A DNA stretch of 42,907 nt, filler included, from a candidate division NPL-UPA2 bacterium Unc8 (GCA_003574845.1; 2 parts of 2 records of this genome joined end to end with filler, not necessarily neighbours in it), one strand, 5' to 3'. Positions 6,358-42,907 are shown, numbered from the whole stretch's first letter. The notes: a model not told the origin generated them from the sequence alone. Translations and numbers: made by a program.

Positions 6358-7472
6358 GATTTCTTTCCCTGGCCCTTTCTCTTCAAGGTCCTCAGGAAAA
6401 CATCAACTACAACCGGGTCAAACTGAGTGCCACTATTATCCTTAAGCTCTTTCACCGCCTCCTGGTGAGAGTAGGCGCCACGGTATGGTCTTCTGGATGT
6501 CATTGCCTGATAGGCATCGACAACACTGAGTATTTTTGCCTCCAGAGATATTTTTTTATCCTTTAATCCGTCTGGATAGCCTGTTCCATTATACCTCTCC
6601 TGATGTTGCCTTACAAAGGTGATCACGTCTTTAAGAAAGTGAAGAGGCTTGAGAATCTCCTCTCCACGGCGCGGATGAGTCTTTACTATCTGCCATTCCG
6701 AATCGGCAAGAGAGGATGGTTTAAGCAGGATATAATCAGGAATTCCAATCTTACCAATATCATGAAGAAGAGCGGCATATTCAAGGCCCTTCAATCTTTC
6801 AGTGGAAAAGCCTAATTTTTTTCCACAAGCACAGGCATATTCAGCGACTTCCCGAGAGTGCCCCGCCGTGTATTCATCGCGAGCATCAATGGCGGATGAG
6901 AGAGCGGCGATTGATGAAATGTAAGCCTCTTTTGCCTCCCCATAAAGACGGGCTTTATCAAGAGCAATTGCGCACTGTTCTGCGAGGAAAGACATAAAAT
7001 CTTTGGCATCCTGATTAAGATAATCTACTTTTCTTTTTGTATAAATACTTAGAGCCCCGACTACCTTTCCCTTGACTATAAGGGGGGTACAGAGAAAAGA
7101 TCTCATTCCTTCTTCCCGCATCAGCTCAAAGGAAGTATGCAATTTATCTTGAGTCAGGTCCACCGTAATCATTCTTTTCTCCTGCACTGCCAATCCGGCA
7201 AGGCTCTCTCCTACCCTTAATTTTTTTTGGCGACGCAGGTACTCGTTGCTATGACCAACAGATGACCTTGGCACAAGCCATCCCCTTTCCAGAAGCCTCA
7301 ATGAGCAGACGTCAGCCCTTGTTATCTCTTGCGTTTTCCTTACGATTGTTCGCAATACATCATCTAAATTTATCTCGGAAGATATTGCACTGCTAACCTT
7401 AAGCAGAGCGGAAAAGTAGTCAGCTCTTCGCTCCATTTCCTCCATTTCACTTTTTTCTTCTTTTTCTGACAT
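6354..7472 (-). CDS. GAF + HD-GYP domain protein (putative c-di-GMP phosphodiesterase)
   Basis: N-terminal GAF-like region (G.SLAG, SFLCTPL, VGAL), then HS, LLHDIGKIG, GTGYPDGL, RPYR, GTQFDP; purine-rich RBS upstream. Confidence 0.9.
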   Translation of the reverse strand: MSEKEEKSEMEEMERRADYFSALLKVSSAISSEINLDDVLRTIVRKTQEITRADVCSLRLLERGWLVPRSSVGHSNEYLRRQKKLRVGESLAGLAVQEKRMITVDLTQDKLHTSFELMREEGMRSFLCTPLIVKGKVVGALSIYTKRKVDYLNQDAKDFMSFLAEQCAIALDKARLYGEAKEAYISSIAALSSAIDARDEYTAGHSREVAEYACACGKKLGFSTERLKGLEYAALLHDIGKIGIPDYILLKPSSLADSEWQIVKTHPRRGEEILKPLHFLKDVITFVRQHQERYNGTGYPDGLKDKKISLEAKILSVVDAYQAMTSRRPYRGAYSHQEAVKELKDNSGTQFDPVVVDVFLRTLKRKGQGKKS

Positions 7473-8068
7473 GACTCCCCCTCCTTTTCAGTATATAGAC
7501 TATATCGCCTGATATATTCCTCCACCTCAAGAGTAACCAGATATCTGATACTTTTTCCCTCCTTTATTCTCTTGCGGACATCTGTTGCTGAAATTCCTAT
7601 TTCCGGAATCTTCATTATGTGAGAACGCTTGCGTACCGCCGGATTGATTTCCTCAACATTAAACCCTGGTCTTAAGGCAACAATAAACTCACACAGCTTA
7701 AGCAACTCATCAACGTTCTTCCAGCTTTCTATCTCCAGCATAGAGTCAACCCCGACAATGAAATAAATCTGAGCTTCCTTGCCATAGGCAGCCAGGAGCC
7801 TCTCCACTGTCTCTACGGAGTAGGATTTTCCTCCTCTTTCTATCTCCAATGAAGAAATAGAAAAGAGCGGATTAGAGCGTGTTGCGAGACGAGTCATCTC
7901 ATACCGAGCCTTTGCAGGAGCAATATCAGAGCTGTCCTTATGAGGAGGAGTCCCTGACGGAATAAAAACTATGTTGTCAAGCTTGAACTGGTCTCCTGCT
8001 TCAGCGGCTACAACGAGATGGCCATAATGAATGGGGTTAAATGTTCCCCCCATAATACCAATTCGCAT
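7370..8068 (-). CDS. nadD: Nicotinate-nucleotide adenylyltransferase
   Basis: GGTFNPIHYGH, PPHK, ISATDVR; the C-terminal tail overlaps the next gene by 103 nt. Confidence 0.95.
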   Translation of the reverse strand: MRIGIMGGTFNPIHYGHLVVAAEAGDQFKLDNIVFIPSGTPPHKDSSDIAPAKARYEMTRLATRSNPLFSISSLEIERGGKSYSVETVERLLAAYGKEAQIYFIVGVDSMLEIESWKNVDELLKLCEFIVALRPGFNVEEINPAVRKRSHIMKIPEIGISATDVRKRIKEGKSIRYLVTLEVEEYIRRYSLYTEKEGESCQKKKKKVKWRKWSEELTTFPLCLRLAVQYLPR

Positions 8069-12722: not shown

Positions 12723-12822
12723 NNNNNNNNNNNNNNNNNNNNNNNNNNNNNNNNNNNNNNNNNNNNTTAATTAATTAANNNNNNNNNNNNNNNNNNNNNN
12801 NNNNNNNNNNNNNNNNNNNNNN
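12723..12822. other. Artificial contig-joining linker / assembly gap
   Basis: 44 N, TTAATTAATTAA (stops in all six frames), 44 N. Confidence 0.97.
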
Positions 12823-32320: not shown

Positions 32321-33241
32321 TTATCTCCTTGTGGTTAACATGCCACTTGCTATCCGCTGTAGAATTAGTTCTTCGCTGTTATCTTTATCAGCGTCAATCC
32401 AGCGAATACGGCTTTCCTTGCGAAACCAGGTAAGCTGTCTTTTAGCATACCTTCTGGTATTGCGTTTTGTGAGCCTTTTTGCCTCTCCTAAGCCATAATT
32501 ATCCTTGAGATAACCGCAGACTTCTTTATATCCAAGCCCCTGCATAGATGGGAGACATTCTTCGTATCCTTTATTTAGCAAGCCCTCCGTTTCAGCAACA
32601 AGACCAAGAGTAAACATTCTCTCAACTCTATCTTCAATCCTCTCATAAAGATTCCGGGTGGTTCTCATCAACCCGATTACAACAAGATTTAGTTCACTGT
32701 TTTTTTCAGCAGATTGAAAAGATGAAAACGGTTTTCCAGTGACCTTATAAACCTCAATGGCTCTGATTATTCTTACAACATCATTGGAATGGATTTTTGC
32801 TGCAGCGTGCGGGTCAAGAGCTTGCAGACGCTTGTGAAGACGTGCCGACCCAAGCTGCTTCACTTCTTCTTCCAATTCTTTCCTTGTCTTCGGGTCATCT
32901 CCACAGTCAGTATCAAGTCCATTTGTAAACGCTCTCAAGTAAAGTCCGCAACCCCCAACTAATATCGGAACTTTCCCTTTTTTTTCTATTTCCCTGATCG
33001 CTCTTCGTGCATCCCGGCAAAACTGTCCGGCGCTGTATTTCTCATCAGGAAAAATAATGTCAATGAGGTGGTAAGGCGCTTTTTCCTGCTCCGCCTTCGT
33101 TGGCTTTGCCGTTCCAATATCCATATACTTAAAGACTTTCCTTGAGTCAACGGAGATAATCTCTCCTCCTATCTTATGAGCTAATCTTGAAGCGGCCCCT
33201 GCCTTTCCGACCGCTGTAGCGCCACAAACAGCAAGAATCAT
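32321..33241 (-). CDS. miaA: tRNA dimethylallyltransferase
   Basis: DS, MDIGTAKP, VGG.GLY, GYKE, TRRYAKRQ.TWFR. Confidence 0.95.
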   Translation of the reverse strand: MILAVCGATAVGKAGAASRLAHKIGGEIISVDSRKVFKYMDIGTAKPTKAEQEKAPYHLIDIIFPDEKYSAGQFCRDARRAIREIEKKGKVPILVGGCGLYLRAFTNGLDTDCGDDPKTRKELEEEVKQLGSARLHKRLQALDPHAAAKIHSNDVVRIIRAIEVYKVTGKPFSSFQSAEKNSELNLVVIGLMRTTRNLYERIEDRVERMFTLGLVAETEGLLNKGYEECLPSMQGLGYKEVCGYLKDNYGLGEAKRLTKRNTRRYAKRQLTWFRKESRIRWIDADKDNSEELILQRIASGMLTTRR

Positions 33242-33244
33242 TGC

Positions 33245-33580
33245 TCACTCCTCCCGCACCGCTTCCGTTACCCATTTAAGATAGCTTGAATTAACATCTT
33301 CTACTTTCAACAGCACTATCTCCGAAACTTCATAAGGATGGATTTCTTCTAATTTTTTAAGTGTTCGGCAGACAAACTCATCCGTTGTTTTCAAAAAAAG
33401 TATGCACTCATCATCTGTCCGGATTTCCCCCTTCCAGAAATACTTACTTTTCACCGGGCCAATCCTGTTCACGCAGGCGACGAGCTTTTCTTCAAGCAAT
33501 AGATTTGTAATCCCTTCTGCTTTGTCCTGAGGACAAGTGGTCATAATCAGTTTTAATTTATCTTTCCCTGCAATGTCCAT
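33245..33580 (-). CDS. cutA: Divalent-cation tolerance protein CutA
   Basis: L.ACVN, S.Y.WKG, HPYEV.EI, YL.W. Confidence 0.9.
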   Translation of the reverse strand: MDIAGKDKLKLIMTTCPQDKAEGITNLLLEEKLVACVNRIGPVKSKYFWKGEIRTDDECILFLKTTDEFVCRTLKKLEEIHPYEVSEIVLLKVEDVNSSYLKWVTEAVREE

Positions 33581-34947
33581 TGACAGGCCCCCGTAATAGT
33601 AACATCCACTAATTTTCCGATTATACCTTTTTCTCCCTTGAAAGTAACAACTTTATTTGTCCTTGTCCTGCCTAATAATTTGGAAGGAGCTTTCTTCTTT
33701 GTTCCATCAACCAGCACCTCAACTCTCCTGCCAAGGAAGTTTTCATTTCTCTTAAGGCTCATTTCTCTCTGAATCTCCTGCAGCCTCCTAAGCCGCTCCT
33801 TCTTTATATTTTCAGGAACTTCATTCTTCATTCCTGCCGCTTTAGTTCCAGGGCGAATAGAATACTTATACATAAATGCGTTGTCAAACCCAACCTTCCT
33901 CATTACATCAAGTGTGTCTTCAAACTCCGCCTCACTTTCCCCGGGAAAGCCGACAATAAGGTCTGTCGTTATTGATAACTCCGGAATGATTTCTCTTGCC
34001 TTTGAAGCAAGGTTTAAATAAAAATCTCTCGTGTATCCCCTGTTCATCAGCTTAAGGATTCTATCAGAGCCGGACTGCAATGGAAGATGAAGATGCTCGC
34101 AGACCTTCGGCAGGTCAGAAACTGCCTTTAGCAGGCGTGAGGTTACCCCTGATGGATGAGAAGTAATAAAGCGGATGCGTTCCACTCCATCAATGCTGTT
34201 AACCTCCTTGAGTAAATACGAGAGGTCAATATCTTTCCATTCATTGCTCATTTTGGATTTATATTTATATGAGGTAATATCCTGCCCGAGAAGCAAAAAT
34301 TCCTTAAAACCCTGTTCTGTCAGATGGACTATTTCATCAATAATTTCCTCAGGTCCCCTACTCTTCTCCTTTCCTCTCAGATACGGAACCACGCAATATG
34401 AGCAGAATTTACTACATCCTCTCATAATCGCCAGCGATGTGCTAACTCTTCCATCTTTCCTGACTGGAAGTCTAAAAAATGGCAGTTTCTCACTTTCTCC
34501 AATATTAACAATTCCCTTTACCCTGTTAGAAGTCTTACCTCTAACGGGGTTTGCTGTTTTCACCTCATTTAGGAGTTCCCCTATTTGATGAAAGTTATGT
34601 GTCCCGCAAACCAGACTCACAGAAGGAAAGCGGCGAATAATTTTTGCCCCTTCTTTCTGAGCCATACACCCGCACACCCCGATAGTTAATGGCTTATTCT
34701 CTCTAATCTTTGATAATCGCCCCAGCTCACTCCACACCTTATCTTCAGCGTGCTCTCGGACGCTACAAGTATTAAGGAGAACCACATCAGCCTTTGAAGT
34801 ATCATCTACAAGACCATATCCATCGTCGGTTAAAATACCCGCCATAATCTCCGAATCATACTCGTTCATCTGACAGCCGAAAGTACGGATGTAGACTTTT
34901 AGTCGGCACTCCGAACTCTGGTTAGAAAGCTGATTTACTCGCTTCAT
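33553..34947 (-). CDS. miaB: tRNA-2-methylthio-N6-dimethylallyladenosine synthase
   Basis: TFGCQMN.YDS, NTCSVR, GCMAQ, CxxxCxxC (CSKFCSYC), IVGFPGE, TRAM domain. Confidence 0.96.
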   Translation of the reverse strand: MKRVNQLSNQSSECRLKVYIRTFGCQMNEYDSEIMAGILTDDGYGLVDDTSKADVVLLNTCSVREHAEDKVWSELGRLSKIRENKPLTIGVCGCMAQKEGAKIIRRFPSVSLVCGTHNFHQIGELLNEVKTANPVRGKTSNRVKGIVNIGESEKLPFFRLPVRKDGRVSTSLAIMRGCSKFCSYCVVPYLRGKEKSRGPEEIIDEIVHLTEQGFKEFLLLGQDITSYKYKSKMSNEWKDIDLSYLLKEVNSIDGVERIRFITSHPSGVTSRLLKAVSDLPKVCEHLHLPLQSGSDRILKLMNRGYTRDFYLNLASKAREIIPELSITTDLIVGFPGESEAEFEDTLDVMRKVGFDNAFMYKYSIRPGTKAAGMKNEVPENIKKERLRRLQEIQREMSLKRNENFLGRRVEVLVDGTKKKAPSKLLGRTRTNKVVTFKGEKGIIGKLVDVTITGACQWTLQGKIN

Positions 34948-34982
34948 TTGTCAAATTTTCCTTCCGCTTCCACATTAATTTT

Positions 34983-35096
34983 TTATCCTAACCTCTTCCG
35001 CTTGGCAAAATCCTCAAGATATTCCCGTTGGACCTCAAGCGAATATCCTTCCTTGGCTGCTTTAGTACTAACGCGAATATAAATAGCAATTTTCAT
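34983..35096 (-). pseudogene. Truncated serine recombinase, 37-aa N-terminal stub (unit B)
   Basis: Manual translation MKIAIYIRVSTKAAKEGYSLEVQREYLEDFAKRKRLG*, with the Y.RVST catalytic motif and EGYS...Q. Confidence 0.85.
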
Positions 35097-35113
35097 TTTT
35101 ATCAAAGCATCAT

Positions 35114-35961
35114 TCATTTTAAAATTTTATTGAATCATACAAATACCTTACCGAGATCAAATTTTTTCCCTAAGCGGATAACGGGTATTAAATCTGTTCC
35201 TACCTGACGTTGAAGCAAATTAACCGATTCTTCATTTAAACCAAAGTTATATCTATAATCGCCTGAATATCCTTCAGCATCAAGTTTCTTCTTAAAAATG
35301 GTGAGAAATTCTTATCATAAAAATCAAAACCAAATTCTGAAATATACCAAAGGTCGTAATAATCCCTTATCGCTACATCTCTTCTGGATATGGCAGCTTT
35401 GAGTTTCTCGGCAACCGCTTCTTTCCATGACAATGACAAAACCTTTCCTGATGGAAATAAGTCTTCACCTGTAAATGGATCTTGATAAAAATGTTTTATC
35501 TCGATATTAACAGGTTTTTCAATAGGATGCTGGCGAAGGGATATTTCGATTTTAATCATATCATCCTTATTCATTAATACAGAATGATATTTAACTTTGA
35601 ATATGTATTGCCTTGAATTATCAAAACCTTCTCCCTCCAGTTTATCACTTGTTAAACCCAGAGCTTTTAAAAATGAAGGCATTTTTTCTCGTATAGGAGT
35701 TATTGCTTTTGATCTTTGGGCACGTGATGAAAATTGAGCATTATATGTAAAATCTAAATCCTCGCTTAAACGATGATAGTTTAAATGCGCTTTATTAAGC
35801 AAAGTGCCACCTTTAAACACAATCTTATCTGTGAGCAATTCTTCAATTTTGTTCAATATAACCGTAAGGTAATAGTCTTTTTCCACAATAGCTGGCCTAA
35901 ACTTCATCTTACCAGCTATAACTGGGATAATATCTTTGAGCTTTTCTCTATCTATTAACAA
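35114..35961 (-). pseudogene. abiEii: AbiEii-family nucleotidyltransferase toxin, probably frameshifted near 35310
   Basis: VEKDY, FKGGTLL, RLSEDLDF, AEKL.A, RD.YDL; likely TTG start at 35961. The called ORF stops at 35236, but another frame continues FLTIFKKKLDAEGY...FDLGKVFV*FNKILK*. Confidence 0.8.
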
Positions 35962-36739
35962 TGATCTTCCACTCCTTATTAATTTTGCCTTTTCGAGATT
36001 GCCTGAAAGGATCAAGGGGCACAAGCACTCTTTTTTCTCCTATTGCTTTATGTAGCGGTTGTAGTGTATCTTTAGAGCACCCATATTCCTCTAAGAAAAA
36101 TCCTACTCTCTTCCTTACCGCGATAACAGGAAATTTAATTAAATATTTAACGAATTTTTCAACATCTATGTTTTTAATGTTATCTTGTAACGCGACCTCA
36201 AAATTACGCATGGAACCTAATGGATTATAGGCAAAGTCCACAAGGGTCCTTTCTTTATCACTTATAAAAACCTCTTGGTCTTCTACTTTAATCTTTTGTA
36301 CGCCATAATATTTTTCTGGTTTAATTTTTACGGCTTCATACCGTATCCCGCTAATATCCTTCTTTGATGATTTCTCAGTATTTAAAACAAAAATAGTCCG
36401 AGGGATCTGCTCGGTAAAACCCCAGTAATTATACATAGTGAAGTATCCTATGTAATAAGACCTATCTCCCATCCACAAAGCGGCAACAATAAATTCATTA
36501 GGCATCCACTGTTGATTAGGAGCCTTTATGGGGACAAGGATATATTTACCTTTTTCAATTTGAATAAAACGCTCCTTTTGGGTAAGTCTATTTAATATAT
36601 TCGCGGCTTTTTTTGCAACACCAAAGATATTTCTAACATATTCCGTTGTTATAAGTCTCTTTTTCTCGTACTCAATTCGGGATATTAAATAAAGTTCGTC
36701 TTTAGAGAGGCTCTTATATTTTGCAGATATTTTTTTCAT
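35948..36739 (-). CDS. abiEi: AbiEi-family antitoxin / transcriptional regulator
   Basis: N-terminal wHTH (L.RL..K.....IEKGKY), YYIG....YWG.TEQIP, SDKERTLVD, KR.G..LE. Confidence 0.85.
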   Translation of the reverse strand: MKKISAKYKSLSKDELYLISRIEYEKKRLITTEYVRNIFGVAKKAANILNRLTQKERFIQIEKGKYILVPIKAPNQQWMPNEFIVAALWMGDRSYYIGYFTMYNYWGFTEQIPRTIFVLNTEKSSKKDISGIRYEAVKIKPEKYYGVQKIKVEDQEVFISDKERTLVDFAYNPLGSMRNFEVALQDNIKNIDVEKFVKYLIKFPVIAVRKRVGFFLEEYGCSKDTLQPLHKAIGEKRVLVPLDPFRQSRKGKINKEWKIIVNR

Positions 36740-36791
36740 TGTTTTCCTTTCGCTATATTCTCACTTTTTGAGACTTCATTGAACGATTTAC

Positions 36792-36820
36792 ATTATACAT
36801 ATTGCGCCCTGATATGTCAA
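36792..36820 (-). promoter_or_regulatory. Consensus sigma70 promoter of the abiE operon
   Basis: Minus strand TTGACA-17 nt-TATAAT, with an ACATAT/ATATGT inverted repeat around the spacer. Confidence 0.85.
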
Positions 36821-36852
36821 ATATATTTTTATCTGAATTGACAGGGGAAAAC

Positions 36853-36877
36853 AAGCAAAAGCCTGTTTCAGGTGGGT
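36853..36877. repeat. 25-bp direct repeat, copy 1
   Basis: AAGCAAAAGCCTGTTTCAGGTGGGT, identical to 41229-41253. Confidence 0.92.
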
Positions 36878-37002
36878 CAAACCAATGCTGGATCTTATAC
36901 TGAATAAATTCTAGCAATCCATTTTAATCCCTGAAATTCACCACGAATTTTCTTCAAAGGGATAGGGTCATCTTTTTTATACTTCCCATTGTAAGCATAG
37001 TT

Positions 37003-37602
37003 TTATGAACTCCATGGATTTTTGAGATGATGCGAAAGGAATATTGGTATTCCAACCTTACGCATTGATGACGAAAATCTTCGAGCCGTATAATGAGCTA
37101 AGACAAAAGCTGCTTTACAATAAGTAAGTGGTGAAGCTTTGCGTATCTCAGACACAAGAACATCACCACAAGAATACACAGTATACATCTTATTATTAAT
37201 TTGGAACCGCCTGTCCCTTATGCCTTGAAGAATAGCTTTTTTCTTACTTTTATTTTTCCTCGCCCTTTTGTATTGGTCGTAAACCTCAACTATTTTTTTG
37301 CGAATCCTGCCGCTTGGACTGACTAACAAAACTTCCAATTTAGAACCGGATGTATTATCGCGCCCCACTAGAACATTTATTTTTGGAGAATTTCTTTTTA
37401 AAAACTTAACAATCCTGTCAGGATAATCACTCCGAAAAAATCCATCCGGAAGCAATGCAAGATTAACCTTCTCAGAACGTGCTTGAATAATAAGCTCATT
37501 AAAAAATTCATTCCTAAAACTCTCTTGAAATTCTTTATTAAGAGTTGTAGGGTATTCATTAAATTTAACTTTATACTGAACAGCAAAAATAGCAACTTTC
37601 AC
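37003..37602 (-). CDS. Hypothetical protein, possible divergent carbon-nitrogen hydrolase fold; may be cut by a premature TAA (frame stays open to 36895)
   Basis: GTG start overlaps the upstream stop; A..EKVNLALLPDG and YSCGD resemble nitrilase motifs. Confidence 0.6.
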   Translation of the reverse strand: MKVAIFAVQYKVKFNEYPTTLNKEFQESFRNEFFNELIIQARSEKVNLALLPDGFFRSDYPDRIVKFLKRNSPKINVLVGRDNTSGSKLEVLLVSPSGRIRKKIVEVYDQYKRARKNKSKKKAILQGIRDRRFQINNKMYTVYSCGDVLVSEIRKASPLTYCKAAFVLAHYTARRFSSSMRKVGIPIFLSHHLKNPWSS

Positions 37603-38891
37603 AATTCTATAGCCTCTCCGTCTTCCAGAATTTGAACATTTTTAAACAATTCTGGATATTTTTCTGTATCAAAAGTATGGATAGGAATTAATTTTTTAGG
37701 ATTCAAAGCATTAGCAAACTTCTTTAAATCTTCTAATTCAGCATGACCGCTTGTATGGACTGACTCTAATAGTAAACCCTGTTCATTGCAAAAAAATCTA
37801 AATTCTTCAGTTAAATACCCATCCCACATTGAATAAATAATCTTTGCGCCTTTAACAGCATTTATATTCTTTAAGATAAGCGGAAAAACAGAATTATCTC
37901 TTGCCAGCATTAAAATCTTGTCTCTTTTCTCATTTAACTCATCCATATCAATTTTTCGTTCATTATATAAGTATAATAAACTTTTTAGGTTGTTCTTTGC
38001 TAACACATCTGCATGATATTTCATAAATTTAACCCTGATGTTCTTCCGGTCAAAGCGTGGAATTCCTTTCGATATTTTATTAAGCTTATCCAAGATATAA
38101 GCAGTATATAAATCAATAACAAATATCGAATCCGTTTTGAGACACGCTCTATACGCTGAAACAAGCCTGTCAATATTCTGAGATGAAGCAAAAAGAAAAG
38201 TAGCAGTTCTACTTTCTTTTAAAATCTCTACAATACGTTTCTCTATTTCTTCTTCATTATTGTAAAGACGGTCACTTCTGCCAAGCATAGAACCTTCCAT
38301 CAAGAGGCAATCTATATCTTTTGGAGGATTTTCAATCATTTGTTTAAATAAGACACTTTTTCTTCCATGCCCCCTGAAGTCACCGGAATAAAACAAACGG
38401 CTACCATCAGCTTCGATTAAAAAAGCTAATGCATCAAAAGCCGAATGATCTACAAGGTAAGGAGTAATTTTAAAATCTCCGATGACAAGAGTTTCTTTAT
38501 TCTTTATAAGTTTAGCGTTAAAACTCTTAACCTCTTTATGCAAGAATAGATTTGTTATATCAACTAATTCTTTAGCTCCCTCGCTCAGATAAATTGGTAT
38601 ATCCGCATGAACATAACTTAAAAGCCCATAGTGATCCATATGAGAATGCGATATCAAAATAGCATCTATTGATTTATTCTCATTTTTGTATAAGCCTTTA
38701 ATCTTCGGCAGAATTGAAAGTTCTTTGAGCTCTTCGACTGATTTACCTTTTAAAATATCCGGATCAAATCTTTCTTTGTTCTTATTAACCAAAGGCATCC
38801 CAAAATCAATCAAGATTCTTGAATTGGCTGCGCTTAGCTCAACACAACTACCCCCGATTTCTTGAGTTCCGCGATGAATAATTAGTTGCAT
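37599..38891 (-). CDS. MBL-fold / beta-CASP hydrolase, RNase J-like
   Basis: EIGGSC, IDFG, SHSHMDH (HxHxDH), DHS, SGDFR, HTSGHA, PIH. Confidence 0.88.
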   Translation of the reverse strand: MQLIIHRGTQEIGGSCVELSAANSRILIDFGMPLVNKNKERFDPDILKGKSVEELKELSILPKIKGLYKNENKSIDAILISHSHMDHYGLLSYVHADIPIYLSEGAKELVDITNLFLHKEVKSFNAKLIKNKETLVIGDFKITPYLVDHSAFDALAFLIEADGSRLFYSGDFRGHGRKSVLFKQMIENPPKDIDCLLMEGSMLGRSDRLYNNEEEIEKRIVEILKESRTATFLFASSQNIDRLVSAYRACLKTDSIFVIDLYTAYILDKLNKISKGIPRFDRKNIRVKFMKYHADVLAKNNLKSLLYLYNERKIDMDELNEKRDKILMLARDNSVFPLILKNINAVKGAKIIYSMWDGYLTEEFRFFCNEQGLLLESVHTSGHAELEDLKKFANALNPKKLIPIHTFDTEKYPELFKNVQILEDGEAIEL

Positions 38892-39841
38892 TTTTCTATA
38901 TAATTAATTCTTCCTAATTTCTCACCAAATTTCAAAAAGCCGAATTCTATCCTTCGGCCCTTATTATGAAATGCACGGTTAAACATTTGAAGTATTTCTT
39001 TATCAATAAGAGGGTGTAGGCGGGGAGCTAAGATATAGGCTTTAATCTTATTTGTTATAGGAATTTCGTTTTCCGGCTTTAGTCTGCTTTTGCTTGTTTT
39101 TCCGAACTTAAGTGTACCTTTCTGTATCTCTTCCATAAGCAGCACGTAAAAGAAAATCTCTGAAATTACACCGACTTTCATATTTTTGCTGTCTTTCAGT
39201 TCAAAAATGTTGAGGGTTTTATGATCCTTGCTGATTCCCCATATATCAACTGCAGATTTTCTTCTTGGAAAAACTTCATTTTTAGCCTTTATTTCTCTAT
39301 GAAAAACTCCAACGGGAAGCTGACGATCTATTTTTGCAATATCTAATCCTGCCACTTTTGAAAGCAATGCTTTTGCTTCACTGATGAACTGTCTTTCAAG
39401 AACATTTTCCTTTGTTGCCTTTTTATGCAGGCGCACTGCTTCCTCACGCACTCTGCTTGGCGCGTTTAAAACACACTTCTCTTTCGAAAAATCAACAACC
39501 TCATCTAATAACTGTCTATTATTTTCATCAACATCAAACCACCCATTAAATAGCTGCTTAAATTTAGAAACACGGTATAAGAATCTTTTGTAATGTAAAT
39601 CTTCTTTTTTAGTATAATCCCATTTTAGTATAATCTTGTCGAACTCTTTAAGCCAACGCCTAAGAATGACAGCCCACGACTCAAAAGCAGCACAATCCTC
39701 CTGCATATTGTTAGCTACGCCATTGCTCATAAAAATTGTAATGGTATGATCTTTCCCATTGAAATCAATTTCACACGGAAATTTAATGTTTACAACACGC
39801 GTCTTCTCTTTTAAAAATTCCAATAATTCCTGTTTATTCAT
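38882..39841 (-). CDS. Hypothetical protein with a putative PD-(D/E)xK nuclease domain
   Basis: E..LE, AVDIWG, IFELK and SEIFFY occur in restriction-fold order. Confidence 0.65.
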   Translation of the reverse strand: MNKQELLEFLKEKTRVVNIKFPCEIDFNGKDHTITIFMSNGVANNMQEDCAAFESWAVILRRWLKEFDKIILKWDYTKKEDLHYKRFLYRVSKFKQLFNGWFDVDENNRQLLDEVVDFSKEKCVLNAPSRVREEAVRLHKKATKENVLERQFISEAKALLSKVAGLDIAKIDRQLPVGVFHREIKAKNEVFPRRKSAVDIWGISKDHKTLNIFELKDSKNMKVGVISEIFFYVLLMEEIQKGTLKFGKTSKSRLKPENEIPITNKIKAYILAPRLHPLIDKEILQMFNRAFHNKGRRIEFGFLKFGEKLGRINYIEKCN

Positions 39842-39960
39842 GCCTGTATGTCTTCACTTCCTCGAAAGGTATCATTTGAGTCGATAAAACATTTCCTTCC
39901 TTTAGCTTGGTCTTCTGTGCTAACTCTTACATAAATTGCAATTCTCAGTTTTTCATTCAT
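39838..39960 (-). pseudogene. Truncated serine recombinase N-terminal stub (unit A)
   Basis: Manual translation MNEKLRIAIYVRVSTEDQAKG, then unrelated sequence to a TGA that overlaps the next ATG. Confidence 0.85.
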
Positions 39961-39976
39961 TTTTAATAGTGGTGCC

Positions 39977-40534
39977 CTATCTTAGTTCCTTTATTAAGCT
40001 CTCTATCGTATCGACAAAATCTATTGCGTTTCTATAAATTTTTTCAGCATCTTTTTGCGCAATAACTGCATCTGCCTTATACTGTGCTGTATTTCTTTTG
40101 GATTTCGTGGCCCACATTCTATTAACATATTTATCATCGAGTCTTTTTGCAGACTTAATTTTCTCGATGTCTTCCGACTCTATAGCCTTTTCTTTAAAAA
40201 CAAAATGATACTCTAATCCCTCAATAAGACTTTCATGGCTCTGGGCTTTTATCCCTATTGCGGCCAACGCAGCTGTTGCCGCATGAAACATTGCATAATA
40301 TCCACAGCTTATAGTCCAATCATATCCAATATAATCGGCACTTACTTTTAGTCTTTTCTTGCTCTCGTTATCTTCCGAAACCTCCATAAGTAAAGAACCT
40401 GTCTCGATATTATGCCTTGCTTTATCAACATGATATTTTACCAGCGCTGTAATTGTGGGGTCTACTTTTAAATCGCCATTATCAAAATAACCTTTTACTT
40501 TTATTTTTAGCATTTCTTTCTTCAAATCACTCAT
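39977..40534 (-). CDS. HEPN domain protein, putative toxin (start ATG 40534)
   Basis: GYYAMFHAA.A.L, SH, RNTAQY (R-x4-Y); GGAGG RBS; ATGA overlap with the MNT stop. Confidence 0.85.
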   Translation of the reverse strand: MSDLKKEMLKIKVKGYFDNGDLKVDPTITALVKYHVDKARHNIETGSLLMEVSEDNESKKRLKVSADYIGYDWTISCGYYAMFHAATAALAAIGIKAQSHESLIEGLEYHFVFKEKAIESEDIEKIKSAKRLDDKYVNRMWATKSKRNTAQYKADAVIAQKDAEKIYRNAIDFVDTIESLIKELR

Positions 40535-41148
40535 TTTATTACCTCCAATATTAGTTCCCAAAATTTCTCTGCACCAAACAATATTACTTTATTTTTTAAG
40601 ATCTCCTTGGCTACATTATGCTCCTTATCTTTTAACATTGTTAATAAATTTGTTGGCTCAGAAACCAAAGGGTTTATTTCGACACCAAAACCTTTTGACA
40701 AGGCGACACATTCCATATCAATAATTTCATCATATTTCTTTTTTGAAGGGATAAGGATAAAAAGATCGATATCGCTTTTCTTGAAATCGGTCCCCTTAGC
40801 CAAAGAGCCAAATAGAACGACAGACAGTAAGTTAAAATCTGTCTTTTTAGGCAACACCGAAAGAAGTTTTTCAGCAACAAAGAAAACCTTGTCTCTTTTC
40901 TTCAGAAAATCTTCGGCTATTTGATTTGATATCTTAACAAAGCTTGTTTTTACTTCTGGATTTTCATAGTTAGGCCTACAATATTTACGGTTTGAGCGTT
41001 GGTCAACAACTATAATCTTTTTATCCTTCAATTCTTCAATTTGTCTATATACATAGCTGTAAGAAATGTTTGTTTTTGTGGCTAACTCGTTTATTGTAAA
41101 CTGTGCATATACGTCATCATAGAATAGCTTTATTATTTTATCTTGCAT
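40531..41148 (-). CDS. HTH + minimal nucleotidyltransferase (MNT), putative antitoxin (start ATG 41148)
   Basis: N-terminal HTH (TINELA....SYSYVY..I.EL), LFGSLAKG....SDIDL; GGAGG RBS. Confidence 0.88.
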   Translation of the reverse strand: MQDKIIKLFYDDVYAQFTINELATKTNISYSYVYRQIEELKDKKIIVVDQRSNRKYCRPNYENPEVKTSFVKISNQIAEDFLKKRDKVFFVAEKLLSVLPKKTDFNLLSVVLFGSLAKGTDFKKSDIDLFILIPSKKKYDEIIDMECVALSKGFGVEINPLVSEPTNLLTMLKDKEHNVAKEILKNKVILFGAEKFWELILEVIK

Positions 41149-41157
41149 TTCAACCTC

Positions 41158-41206
41158 CATTATCACTTTTGGTGATAATGTTATCACTAAAACTGATATA
41201 TGTCAA
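41158..41206 (-). promoter_or_regulatory. Promoter of the MNT-HEPN operon with two tandem palindromic operator candidates
   Basis: Minus strand TTGACA-17 nt-TAACAT; TATCA-N7-TGATA at 41161-41177 and 41182-41198. Confidence 0.75.
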
Positions 41207-41228
41207 GCGAAATCTTCAAGGGGGAAAT

Positions 41229-41253
41229 AAGCAAAAGCCTGTTTCAGGTGGGT
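41229..41253. repeat. 25-bp direct repeat, copy 2
   Basis: AAGCAAAAGCCTGTTTCAGGTGGGT, identical to 36853-36877; both copies are preceded by GGGGAAA. Confidence 0.92.
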
Positions 41254-41444
41254 GTGGGTTTTTCTTTTCCTCTGCTTTTTAACGACAATTAGGGAATTGG
41301 CGTGCGGATTGCCCGAAAGGCAAGACGCCTTATTAATTTCCTCAGTTCAATAAGGAAGTGCAACTCTTTCTCGATCTCGCAAAAATTCTCTAAATAATTC
41401 TTTTTTTTGGCGTCGCAAAAAGTTTTAAAAGGTGCAATTTGAAA

Positions 41445-42026
41445 TTAAATATCTTCAAAAGTAATTTCGATTCCGTTCTTTTTCTTTTCGTAAAATATAA
41501 TTTTGGTTTTTATACTCTCCTGTAGTCCTAATTTTGCTTTATATGTTGCAGGTTTAATCGAAATCGGAGTTTCATCTAAAAATCCATCTATGCCCTTAGA
41601 TTCCTCCTGGGGATTAGCAATTCTAAACTTACATCCCTTTTTCTCAGCAACTTTCTTTAAGATAGCTTCTTGAAACCTTAGTCCAATAAATGTTTTTACT
41701 ATCACGAGGTCTCGAACCCATCGCTCTACCAAATCTTTATCAATCTCATCCATGGCCCCTTTGAAACTTCCTATCATTTTAACTACCTTTTCTGTTGCAT
41801 TTACAATTGCATCTGGATTTTTCTTAACATACCATTCTTCCCATTCCGGTAAGCTTCTTCCAGAAAATTCTTGAATAAGATCACTAAGTTGACCAACAAC
41901 TTTTGGCCTTGTGCCCTGCGCAAATTGATTTGCCAAATTAAGAATAGAAGTTGTGTATTTGGGAAAATCCGGAGAGTCGATATCTAAAAATTTACGCAAT
42001 TCTTCATTAGATATTTTTAATTTCAT
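41445..42026 (-). CDS. MjaI-family type II restriction endonuclease
   Basis: FPKYT...NLANQ.AQGTRPKVVGQ.SDLIQEF, WV.DLV..KTF.G, E.KGIDG....ISIKP..Y; adjacent to an MTase. Confidence 0.8.
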   Translation of the reverse strand: MKLKISNEELRKFLDIDSPDFPKYTTSILNLANQFAQGTRPKVVGQLSDLIQEFSGRSLPEWEEWYVKKNPDAIVNATEKVVKMIGSFKGAMDEIDKDLVERWVRDLVIVKTFIGLRFQEAILKKVAEKKGCKFRIANPQEESKGIDGFLDETPISIKPATYKAKLGLQESIKTKIIFYEKKKNGIEITFEDI

Positions 42027-42907
42027 CTAAGTACTCCTTCCTTGGAATATTTAACAAACCTATTTCTATACCTATATTCATTTAATTCATCAACATCGAC
42101 TAGCTGTGTTTTAACGAGGTGGGAATTAATGCAGGTTTTATTCTCTAAATAAAGATAACATAAAAGATTCTTGTTGTCGTCGTATTTAACATCGTCGAAC
42201 TTCATAAAAACCTTTTTCGCTTTGGTTATATTATTTAGATACTCAATAGCTTTACGTTCCGTTGCTGCTTTTCTTTTAACTCCAATTAGTCTTACTTTCA
42301 AATTATTACTTAACAACAAAGTAGTACTGTCCAAGATAGCTCTGACTGAATAATAATCTTCTCTCTTATTCCTACCATTGGTATCCACAACCGTTCCAAA
42401 CTTGAATTTTTTTGGATCTGTCAATCTTTCTAAGTGGTTATTATTTAAGAAAGTATGTGGCTTCTCTTCTTTTTTACCATTCTTTTTCTGAAATACAACT
42501 TCGTGGTCAAAGTCTTTCTTAAATAATGCGGGTTCATTATGAATACCTATTTTACTTTTAATTGTTTCTACAAACTCTTTATTTATTTCGTAGCCAACAG
42601 AATTCCTCCCTAATTCTAAGGCCGCTTTTGAAGTAGTGCCGCTTCCTAAAAATGGATCTAAAACAGTGTCTCCATAAAAACTGAACATTTTAATTAGACG
42701 CCTTGGCAGTTCTAATGGAAACATAGCGATGTGACCATTTTGTTTTTCCCCTGCAAAATTCCAATGTCCATTGAAATACTCATTCCATTCCTCGTTAGAA
42801 AGTTTAGATTTTTCTTTTATTTCTTTAGGAGGTTTTACATCTTTCCCTAATTTTTTAAATACTAAAATAAATTCATAATCAATTTTAATTATTCCCCCTC
42901 TCGGGTA
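42023..42907 (-). CDS. N4/N6 DNA methyltransferase (beta class) with a C-terminal thermonuclease-like domain; 5' end lies outside the window
   Basis: Frame is open to the window end (YPRGGIIKIDYEFIL...HIAMFP.EL); VLDPFLGSGTT, GYEIN; C-terminal VRLIGV, LCYLY, IN..LV resemble the SNase fold. Confidence 0.88.
   Translation of the reverse strand, partial: YPRGGIIKIDYEFILVFKKLGKDVKPPKEIKEKSKLSNEEWNEYFNGHWNFAGEKQNGHIAMFPLELPRRLIKMFSFYGDTVLDPFLGSGTTSKAALELGRNSVGYEINKEFVETIKSKIGIHNEPALFKKDFDHEVVFQKKNGKKEEKPHTFLNNNHLERLTDPKKFKFGTVVDTNGRNKREDYYSVRAILDSTTLLLSNNLKVRLIGVKRKAATERKAIEYLNNITKAKKVFMKFDDVKYDDNKNLLCYLYLENKTCINSHLVKTQLVDVDELNEYRYRNRFVKYSKEGVLR

Follow-up and report, generated by a model that had tools for sequence, protein, structure and literature searches.

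Remnants of large serine recombinase genes and toxin-antitoxin operons upstream of miaB: a likely fossil cassette array in the candidate division NPL-UPA2 bacterium Unc8

The DNA analyzed here (the window: 42,907 nucleotides including filler, from the candidate division NPL-UPA2 bacterium Unc8, GCA_003574845.1) contains, between positions 34,983 and 42,907, two successive groups of genes read on the minus strand, in each of which cargo genes, a 25-bp sequence, a promoter, a toxin-antitoxin (TA) pair and a short remnant (stub) of a large serine recombinase (LSR) gene follow each other. Unit A carries an MNT-HEPN pair and stub 2; unit B, with an AbiE pair and stub 1, lies directly upstream of miaB, which encodes a tRNA methylthiotransferase. 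These 8 kb likely represent a fossil array in which two or more cassettes remain from small LSR-moved elements of a widespread family; the elements would have inserted at a core sequence within miaB and lost their LSR genes. On a wider proposal, a hitherto undescribed platform for cassette accretion would be common to uncultivated bacteria from at least six phyla. In this platform an LSR, whose own 3' tail would supply a new start for miaB, would insert single-gene defense or TA cassettes at one nucleotide of miaB and regenerate its target, the left arm with its hairpin and an inverted second site would be functional parts, and the window would represent a fossil. For this proposal, the case for and the case against seem to us evenly balanced.

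An alignment of 12 full-length LSRs led to 229 genomic relatives, of which the best 80 loci were examined. In 60 of these, the distance from the LSR end to the start of a co-oriented miaB is between -156 and +150 nt, and miaA usually comes next. Of the remaining 20 loci, 12 end no more than 350 nt after the LSR, seven have room for a miaB but none follows, and one has it at a distance of 1.1 kb. The LSR therefore adjoins miaB in 60 of the 68 assessable loci. According to the depositors' labels, the examined loci belong to Omnitrophota, Elusimicrobia, Planctomycetia, Auribacterota, Margulisiibacteriota, Saganbacteria and WOR-1, that is, to at least six phylum-level lineages. The association of a serine-recombinase family with miaB, which a preliminary description of this DNA had suggested, is hence borne out across phyla.

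The LSR gene and the gene behind it overlap, as miaB begins, in another frame, within the final ~25 codons of the LSR. A right junction of the form ..CCGTACCTTCGGnTG/yCArATGAA or ..GTCTACATCCGTACCTTCGGnTG/yCArATGAA (the slash marks the point of joining) was read in 18 loci, inside the TFG/CQMN motif of MiaB. The junction core TTCGGNTG falls into the miaB codons TFG/C (Thr-Phe-Gly/Cys), and the uninterrupted site of the "LSR-long" 3' ends reads ..CCTTCGGATG/ACCCTTGG... In the window, stub 1 ends 35 nt before the ATG of a co-oriented miaB, and the core lies at 34874-34881. The attachment arm of the family is present in a single copy, at the window's own miaB (Table 1), and homology with the miaB of a sister species stops at 34884. 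As a separate observation, a recurrent LSR end after the core, ..GRC.PYR.TMA.LAEAL.GAD or ..GRW.RYRGTME.IAEAL.., was noticed at L041 3200-3285, L086 7600-7701, L101 7600-7695, L050 3290-3400 and L010 7422-7574; it resembles another conserved target, or partner site, distinct from miaB.

To survey the cargo, Pfam models were applied to the 140 nearest upstream open reading frames (ORFs; at most three per locus) from the 50 loci with at least 900 nt upstream. A small MerR_1/HTH_17 gene (57-149 aa) was found in 31 of the 50 loci, and beside it a variable gene or gene pair that ends 0-25 nt before the LSR start. The genes in this slot encode RhuM (three loci), HEPN_AbiV (two), PHP-SMC/AAA_21 (three to four), OLD-TOPRIM with UvrD, PLD with TIR, AIPR, RES, YhcG, DUF3644, DUF4062/HATPase_c_4, or a helicase with a DprA-like protein; Phage_rep_O takes their place in five loci. 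The exchangeable defense or TA gene postulated beforehand is thus found directly upstream of the LSR, in operon position, and the TA pairs of the window occupy the slot that the variable genes hold in relatives. The MNT-HEPN cassette occurs at 19 further loci with 73-94% amino acid identity and 81-90% DNA identity over 1.25-1.35 kb. These loci are labeled as Omnitrophota, Planctomycetia, Melioribacteraceae, Aerophobetes and others; such identity across phyla indicates recent horizontal spread.

Both stubs contain the catalytic motif of serine recombinases with the nucleophilic serine (IAIYIRVST in stub 1, IAIYVRVST in stub 2). Stub 1 reaches 23.9 bits with the Pfam Resolvase model (cut-off 23.3 bits); stub 2 has no Pfam match. 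A search with stub 1 returned 236 proteins at E<=0.001 among 246 candidates. Many of them are proteins of 540-583 aa with Resolvase, Recombinase and zinc-ribbon domains and 75-88% identity over the stub, and numerous short fragments located on long contigs were retrieved as well. The stub 2 homologue in locus L010 continues ..LMFQQLGSFAEFERNRIAE..GARFVPFGYSY.., which belongs to the same LSR family, and in L010, L011 and L012 the DNA homology to the LSR begins after HEPN. Together with the full-length relatives, this supports the earlier identification of the two Y.RVST stubs as LSR remnants.

Recombinase-derived sequence after HEPN was detected in six of the 14 MNT-HEPN loci that hold sequence there. 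The remnant comprises ~6 codons in L019, 23 in L011 and 38 with a dead start codon in L012; L010 retains 12 codons followed by an internal piece (..FAEFERNRIAE..PFGYSY..), and L021 and L022 have only the LSR C-terminal tail and the miaB start. In L112, AbiE is followed by a 5'-truncated LSR. Because the remnants end at different points, the stubs result from independent deletions and not from a site-specific cut. As fragments of 44 and 21 codons, neither stub has a complete catalytic domain, Recombinase domain or zinc ribbon. Judged from their sequence, both window recombinases are dead, and nothing in the window is demonstrably active. A candidate LSR tail or junction scar after stub 2 was rejected, since 140-290 of 300 shuffles scored as high, and LSR-tail sequence in 34901-34982 was not supported by blastn-short. 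Beyond chance matches, neither the rest of either recombinase nor an inverted arm, an alternative LSR tail or a second core was found in the window and the genome.

The preliminary description had regarded the 25-bp sequence as the integration site. Its presence in both units is confirmed: the exact 25-mer (36853-36877 and 41229-41253) is part of a 35-nt direct repeat with 33 matching positions (36843-36877 versus 41219-41253). With up to three mismatches, the window contains two matches compared to none in 100 shuffles, and the 996-kb genome has no further copy. Scans for the exact 25-mer or 21-mer identified one locus in genome_contigs, from the same species (99.3%), and four loci on three contigs in metagenome_contigs, all of which represent this same locus; there was none in viral_contigs or in the second genome of the family. 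The proposed function as integration site, however, was not borne out, since the junctions of the relatives are located at TTCGGNTG in miaB and at the LSR 3' tail. Comparison of the relatives instead identifies the 25-mer not as a crossover site but as the core of a covarying hairpin within the elements' non-coding left arm. In relatives, two short hairpins precede this one, and the -35 box lies 12-25 nt downstream of it. Of the cells in 14 copies, 88% pair, compared to 25-46% in slid controls, and four of the nine pairs show a compensatory change; L043 and L040 have different or longer perfect stems, the length ranging from 9 to 16 bp (L040). A regulatory, architectural or insulating, protein-binding role of the hairpin is putative. 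Of the two window copies, Site 2 folds moderately as an 8-bp hairpin and Site 1 is degenerate. Rfam (E<=1) gave no match in 33000-42907, and the repeat site was not listed by a terminator scan.

An nhmmer profile of the left arm produced 25 matches, always upstream of a cassette, in 16 LSR loci, five MNT-HEPN loci, the sister species G001 and both window copies. The left arm of unit A (41290-41201) was matched with an E value of 3.5e-20, and unit B retains the hairpin part only. The left-arm homology begins exactly at the inner edge of the relatives' inverted repeat, and that with L009 extends to 41328. While the copies in the window agree at all 25 nt, 5-6 of these positions differ between orthologous copies, suggesting recent exchange or a common origin within this lineage. 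Neither the 25-mer or a site-like motif nor the stub motif is present in any of the 38 other AbiE loci; in unit B the motif is therefore part of the element arm rather than of the AbiE cassette. An alternative left arm of ~230 nt in direct orientation, with the perfect palindrome GTTGACATCT..AGATGTCAAC, was seen at L012 3262-3427, 4573-4713 and 6568-6640 and at L014 4757-4975. It heads successive TA cassettes and also occurs at the end of the AbiE locus L147.

A TTGACA promoter in front of each TA pair had also been described, and the two cassette promoters rank first and second among the 30 promoter-like sites of the region. In the MNT-HEPN promoter, a perfect 16-bp palindrome, GTGATAACATTATCAC (41172-41187), overlaps the -10 box and is kept in an alignment of 18 relatives. 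It is likely the operator through which the HTH-MNT protein would regulate its own expression. Since the annotated GTG start of the HTH-MNT gene at 41187 lies inside this palindrome, the true start is probably the ATG at 41160.

Tandem arrays of the kind proposed for the window exist elsewhere (L012, L014, L019, L041, L060, L106 and L080/L084). In L014 and L019, an LSR 3' fragment that ends in the arm is joined at TTCGGYTG to a left arm of ~230 nt leading into the MNT-HEPN promoter, and the same core connects such an arm to a short stub of the miaB start in L016 and L017. L012 contains three copies of the ~230-nt left arm. Between LSR and miaB of L106, two small ORFs are enclosed by a direct repeat of 88 nt derived from the miaB start. 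In L041 and L060 the LSR is followed by another HTH plus defense or AbiE-like cassette; the LSRs L080 and L084 share a contig at a distance of 14.5 kb, and only the proximal one abuts miaB. Loci with a TA pair next to miaB and the LSR gone were found as well (L009, L021/L022, the AbiE loci L124 and L133, and G001), the pair lying directly before miaB in L009, L124, L133 and G001. The locus of the sister species (L110, G001:C1, 3804-6510) encodes a HATPase_c_4/wHTH protein, a site-like motif with a promoter, an HTH-MNT/HEPN pair and a second, minimal MNT/HEPN pair whose stop codon overlaps the miaB start. With two different MNT-HEPN pairs in G001, comparison of the two species indicates that the locus upstream of miaB turns over within the genus.

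These observations can be combined into the following model. In intact relatives, an element consists of a structured left arm (hairpins and a strong sigma-70 promoter), a small regulator or antitoxin gene, one variable defense or toxin gene, and the LSR gene, which overlaps the start of a replacement miaB with its final ~55 codons. The element is joined to the chromosome at the TTCGGNTG core within the miaB codons Thr-Phe-Gly/Cys. Because it rebuilds the miaB start, the junction beside miaB would again resemble the target, so that a further element could insert and cassettes could pile up in tandem upstream of miaB. In the window, later deletions would have removed all internal junctions and left no more than 21 and 44 codons of the two LSR genes. 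That the TA operons have persisted with their promoters is probably due to counter-selection against the loss of an addictive TA pair. Of the earlier proposal of a family of integrative defense elements at a conserved site, the LSR-driven, miaB-linked and exchangeable cassettes are retained, but not the role of the 25-mer.

Several observations weigh against this model. MNT-HEPN or AbiE was present in none of the 80 full-length LSR loci, and neither TA pair was accompanied by an intact LSR at any locus examined. Neither an LSR remnant nor miaB is nearby in eight of the 14 loci with MNT-HEPN and in the majority of the 38 with AbiE, indicating that TA cassettes also travel or persist outside the LSR/miaB context. 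The genome, which is 94.7% complete, contains no full-length LSR (PF00239 matched stub 1 only, PF07508 nothing), and the exact 25-mer is confined to this species in the scans made. The window contains one copy only of the core and arm, without an inverted repeat or arm, a P' tail or any left-junction sequence, and the sequence after stub 2 is unlike a junction arm (shuffle test not significant). Likewise, no element boundary in the window ties the restriction-modification pair or the nuclease-like, metallo-beta-lactamase (MBL) and CN-hydrolase-like genes to the elements. In the absence of such scars, we infer the tandem-insertion history of the two units from the relatives.

The same data allow other explanations. 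The family could primarily be an invertible switch, in which the LSR flips the cassette between inverted sites and of which the window would be a decayed, locked copy. In 42 of the 80 LSR loci, the region of the LSR 3' end and miaB start recurs in inverted orientation on the upstream side of the cassette, over 92-281 nt and mostly with 92-100% identity, and the left junction is the reverse complement of the uninterrupted site. Both types of joint have been sampled: the conserved alternative tail ..SADPWFLLYKFSKPF.., which is encoded across the left junction, ends six of 13 fetched LSRs, and ends of the type ..SAAR/SDAR reading into miaB were found in two of 13 fetched and eight of 12 aligned LSRs. 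Thus, the inverted copy may be an internal second attachment site or a product of cassette inversion; both fit. Flipping would change the LSR C-terminus and the transcription context of miaB, a consequence we regard as unlikely in the same way as the switch itself. A single orientation was found in 59 of the 60 miaB-adjacent assemblies, the window lacks an inverted copy, and neither the spread across phyla with 81-92% identity nor the direct-orientation junctions and direct repeats (L106) would be explained. In the odd assembly, L033, a complete miaB-miaA lies to the left of the cassette on the opposite strand, and to the right of the LSR there is another miaB 5' part, 86% identical (2675-2954 and 7471-7750); this could represent the inverted state or a captured foreign miaB start. 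The preliminary description, on the other hand, had pictured an integron-like system with the 25-bp repeat as recombination site, at which units of cargo, site, TA pair and recombinase are exchanged. The repeat is indeed an island of identity between otherwise unrelated flanks, the homology of unit B and L011 to the family starts exactly at the hairpin, and the window copies (25/25) are closer to each other than orthologous copies are, as exchange at this position would predict; moreover, palindromes can act as recombination hot spots. But the junctions common to many loci elsewhere lie in miaB and the LSR tail, the hairpin is located 190-250 nt inside the left arm of the relatives, its covarying stem of changing length is unlike a recombinase site with fixed spacing, and the motif is missing from all other AbiE loci. 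Serine recombinases are also not known to leave direct repeats of 25-35 nt, and we judge exchange at the 25-mer to be very unlikely.

The TA cassettes could also have arrived without recombinase-driven accretion, e.g., by homologous or illegitimate recombination that brought selfish TA modules into a permissive region, with the stubs hitch-hiking as 3' flank. This would agree with the missing junction scars in the window, with the AbiE relatives, most of which are remote from LSR and miaB, and with MNT-HEPN pairs, sometimes with a stub, between housekeeping genes far from miaB (L011, L013, L015, L017, L020 and L026). Such an independent arrival nevertheless seems quite unlikely to us: miaB or its start is found within 3 kb in six of the 14 MNT-HEPN loci and directly in L124 and L133 (AbiE), a frequency far above expectation for one gene among thousands. 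In addition, the cassette left arm in L014, L016, L017 and L019 is joined at the exact LSR core, and stub 1 is positioned directly before miaB, where the LSR of the family always sits. Finally, units A and B could originate from different organisms and be fused in the assembly via a shared MNT-HEPN sequence. In three runs from the same samples, the contig depth of the MNT-HEPN stretch (39931-40943) is 4- to 17-fold above that of its flanks, and contigs break at 40497-40720 and at 41223; the link across 40497-40720 consists of sequence common to an organism that is ~15-fold more abundant in the same samples. However, the depths on either side of this weak link match (28.3, 29 and 20.9 in run X3), and the array order agrees in four independent assemblies. 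A near-identical contig (L004, 99.3% over 9,671 nt, no gaps, identical gene order) was deposited as part of a metagenome-assembled genome (MAG) of "Candidatus Psychracetigena formicireducens", phylum Candidatus Lithacetigenota by the depositors' label. Three older metagenome contigs show the same order; among them, L006 (14 kb) covers both sites and the whole array and L007 spans 35305-41223, with 99.2-99.6% identity. Alternative joints indicating excision, deletion between the two sites or circles were not observed in the contigs of four runs; since contigs drop rare variants, this does not argue against such forms. A misassembly of separate loci is hardly credible in view of these data, and we retain the fossil array of miaB-targeted elements as our explanation. 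The contigs of the abundant variant run past 39931 into a recombinase N-terminus (..TRVSTEDQAK, a loose end of 255 nt), which points to a related cassette with a longer recombinase gene in a more abundant member of the community.

With respect to the sequence context, window positions 12823-42907 correspond to the whole 30,085-bp contig C24, one of 24 contigs of the genome, and the array region reaches the end of this contig. Positions 1 to ~12734 derive from another contig (C19), and N runs with the linker TTAATTAATTAA occupy 12735-12822; features are not continuous across this join. The coordinates of all features are collected in Table 1.

Table 1. Features of the two units and of the adjoining miaB gene; positions refer to the whole window.
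Feature	Position	Strand	Evidence or remark
MTase, type II DNA methyltransferase, C-terminal 294 codons, running off the contig end	42023-42907	-	Pfam N6_N4_Mtase 1.3e-27; PADLOC MTase_II 1.5e-85
MjaI-family type II restriction endonuclease	41445-42026	-	Pfam RE_MjaI 2.8e-67; PADLOC REase_II 4.3e-67
Left arm of the LSR element family, non-coding and conserved, with two short hairpins	41254-41328	-	blastn, L045 304-431 versus window 41328-41201, 78%
Site 1, copy of the 35-nt repeat (exact 25-mer 41229-41253)	41219-41253	.	degenerate copy of the hairpin GAAAYAGGC-loop-GCCTRTTTC, with C-runs on either side
Cassette A promoter, TTGACA-17-TAACAT with TG	41172-41206 (boxes 41206-41178)	-	promoter scan 10/12
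HTH-MNT nucleotidyltransferase, antitoxin-type	40531-41187	-	Pfam Polbeta/NTP_transf_2/HTH_11; PADLOC PDC-M05A 3.3e-18
HEPN protein, toxin-type partner	39977-40561	-	Pfam HEPN 2.4e-6; PADLOC PDC-M05B 3.4e-9
Stub 2, 40-codon ORF: first 21 LSR codons (MNEKLRIAIYVRVSTEDQAKG, ~39898-39960), then unrelated sequence	39838-39960	-	translation
319-aa protein, possible nuclease	38882-39841	-	PD-(D/E)xK-like motif (our reading); predicted structure TM 0.83 to REase-ARP/PDDEXK_13 proteins, lead only
MBL-fold/beta-CASP-like hydrolase, 430 aa	37599-38891	-	Pfam Lactamase_B_2 1.7e-16, RMMBL 3.3e-6
199-aa CN-hydrolase-like protein, short	37003-37602	-	no Pfam match; predicted structure TM 0.71 to CN_hydrolase, lead only
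Site 2, other copy of the 35-nt repeat; of the left arm, the hairpin part only	36843-36877	.	nhmmer 36877-36837, E 5.5e-5, profile positions 40-80 only
Cassette B promoter, TTGACA-17-TATAAT	36792-36820	-	promoter scan 12/12
AbiEi antitoxin/regulator	35948-36739	-	Pfam AbiEi_1 1.8e-7; PADLOC AbiEi 1.5e-52; 38 related loci
AbiEii nucleotidyltransferase toxin, frameshifted near 3' end	35135-36024	-	Pfam AbiEii 4.7e-29
Stub 1, first 44 codons of an LSR gene, beginning ..KIAIYIRVST..GYSLEVQREYLEDFAKR	34983-35117	-	Pfam Resolvase 5e-5
Attachment arm of the family in the miaB 5' end, GTCTACATCCGTACTTTCGGCTG/TCAGATGAA, core TTCGGCTG at 34874-34881	34862-34900	-	blastn-short with the arms of six relatives, 86-100%
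miaB, tRNA methylthiotransferase	33553-34947	-	Pfam UPF0004, Radical_SAM, TRAM; then cutA, miaA

ORFs, Pfam and PADLOC confirm that the same minus-strand layout occurs twice with unrelated genes in each slot. In unit A, the MjaI-family restriction endonuclease adjoins the DNA methyltransferase and forms a type II restriction-modification system with it. The C-terminal region of the methyltransferase is SNase-like, and its start codon, seen in L006, is located ~410 nt past the window end. The MNT and HEPN genes overlap by 31 nt and, by sequence, constitute a HEPN-MNT pair (type VII-like; PADLOC candidate PDC-M05); the MNT gene scores 32 bits with the MntA model, whose cut-off is 60. No relatives of the HEPN protein were found in viral_contigs. 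Small GIY-YIG genes were noticed beside cassettes in Omnitrophota and Planctomycetia (L010 7103-7447, L011 6528-6833, L016 4260-4526, L024 3322-3678 and L050 4454-4804).

In unit B, two genes had been labeled beforehand as nuclease and nitrilase-like. Neither label has Pfam support, and for the 319-aa protein there is no NCBIfam match either, but predicted structures (template-modeling scores, TM, in Table 1) provide leads in both cases. The 319-aa protein shows no similarity (E 0.52) to the 326-aa neighbor of the MBL gene in L016. The MBL gene itself has 82.7% nucleotide identity to the gene upstream of the MNT-HEPN cassette in L016, with fragments near AbiE in L115, and a homologue of the 199-aa protein (75% amino acid identity) is located inside an LSR element in L052. 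The AbiEii ORF stops at 35236, and the homologous C-terminal frame stops at 35135. AbiEii homologues align to amino acid 248 only, and L112 has the C-terminus in the other frame. The frameshift, ~14 codons before the ORF end (35236-35300), is common to the second MAG and the metagenome contigs in gap-free alignments, and the toxin may be inactive as a result. The previously described spacing of 16 nt between the HEPN stop and stub 2 is correct, whereas that of 17 nt between the AbiEii stop and stub 1 is obtained only if AbiEii is read through the frameshift, in a frame that the homologues confirm. Pfam identified no transposase within 33000-42907 and no tyrosine recombinase among the 15 ORFs scanned.

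The interest of these results lies in the LSR family rather than in the window locus, which would be a graveyard where addictive TA operons, promoters and a few defense genes outlived their recombinases. If the family works as suggested here, it would explain the small defense and TA islets before miaB in very different bacteria. The LSR target is a nearly universal and highly conserved coding motif (TFGCQMN of MiaB), which may be of practical interest for site-specific integration in many hosts. Should the wider proposal of a shared accretion platform be true, arrays would grow in an integron-like manner from cassettes that are self-mobile and self-promoted, the left arm with its 25-mer hairpin and the inverted site could control directionality, inversion or insulation, and TA cassettes would be what remains once the recombinases die. 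We found no description of miaB-targeting LSR elements in the literature searched, most subscription journals being outside its reach.

Individual features resemble known systems. TA modules adjoin resolvase genes in Tn3-family transposons, and there as here a TA pair lies immediately beside a serine-recombinase gene, presumably stabilizing the element. However, the relatives in our case are LSRs (540-583 aa) and not small resolvases, and the window contains no DDE transposase or res site, so that it does not hold a TA-resolvase module of the Tn3 type. As in integrons, promoter-proximal, exchangeable cassettes are arrayed beside a fixed platform, with imperfect palindromes in between. In contrast to the promoterless attC cassettes next to IntI and attI, each cassette here carries a near-consensus promoter and originally also brought along a recombinase; there is no tyrosine recombinase IntI, and the palindrome is not at the cassette junction. 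Like Hin/Gin invertons, many members of the family have the recombinase gene within a segment bounded by inverted repeats and next to a gene that is read into, but the recombinase is large, the repeats of 90-280 nt overlap two coding regions, and the data point to horizontal spread and direct-orientation junctions. Large serine integrases of phages and integrative and conjugative elements, such as those of phiC31 and Bxb1, can insert into protein-coding genes, e.g., A118 into comK and SPbeta into spsM. They share the Resolvase, Recombinase and zinc-ribbon architecture and a site-specific target inside a gene with the LSRs described here, whose elements differ in being 2-5 kb long, lacking phage or conjugation genes, rebuilding the target instead of splitting it, and forming arrays.

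A target in the 5' end of a tRNA-modification gene has a precedent in dusA. Farrugia et al. (2015; PMC4482086) describe islands and prophages integrated in the dusA 5' end in hundreds of genomes, state that few tRNA-modification genes are known as targets, and mention a case in the MiaB-like rimO. Those islands use tyrosine integrases, whereas the elements described here combine an LSR with miaB. The closest mode of working is that of the staphylococcal cassette chromosome (SCC/SCCmec) and its enterococcal counterpart (ECC). Their Ccr LSRs insert cassettes at the 3' end of rlmH (orfX), leaving the gene intact and the target regenerated, and SCC elements, some without recombinase, accumulate in tandem as composite islands. 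Both systems thus have an LSR, one conserved RNA-modification gene and tandem composites, a resemblance in mode of working only: the CcrB model gives 18.4 bits in the window (cut-off 900), and no boundary repeats are left there. In our family the target is the 5' end of miaB instead of the rlmH 3' end, and the LSR 3' tail overlaps the start of the rebuilt gene. The cargo is one defense or TA gene in an operon with the LSR, many copies have an inverted second site, and the hosts belong to uncultivated phyla. If the proposed mechanism holds, the family would be a serine-recombinase counterpart of SCC- and integron-style accretion in lineages without genetics.

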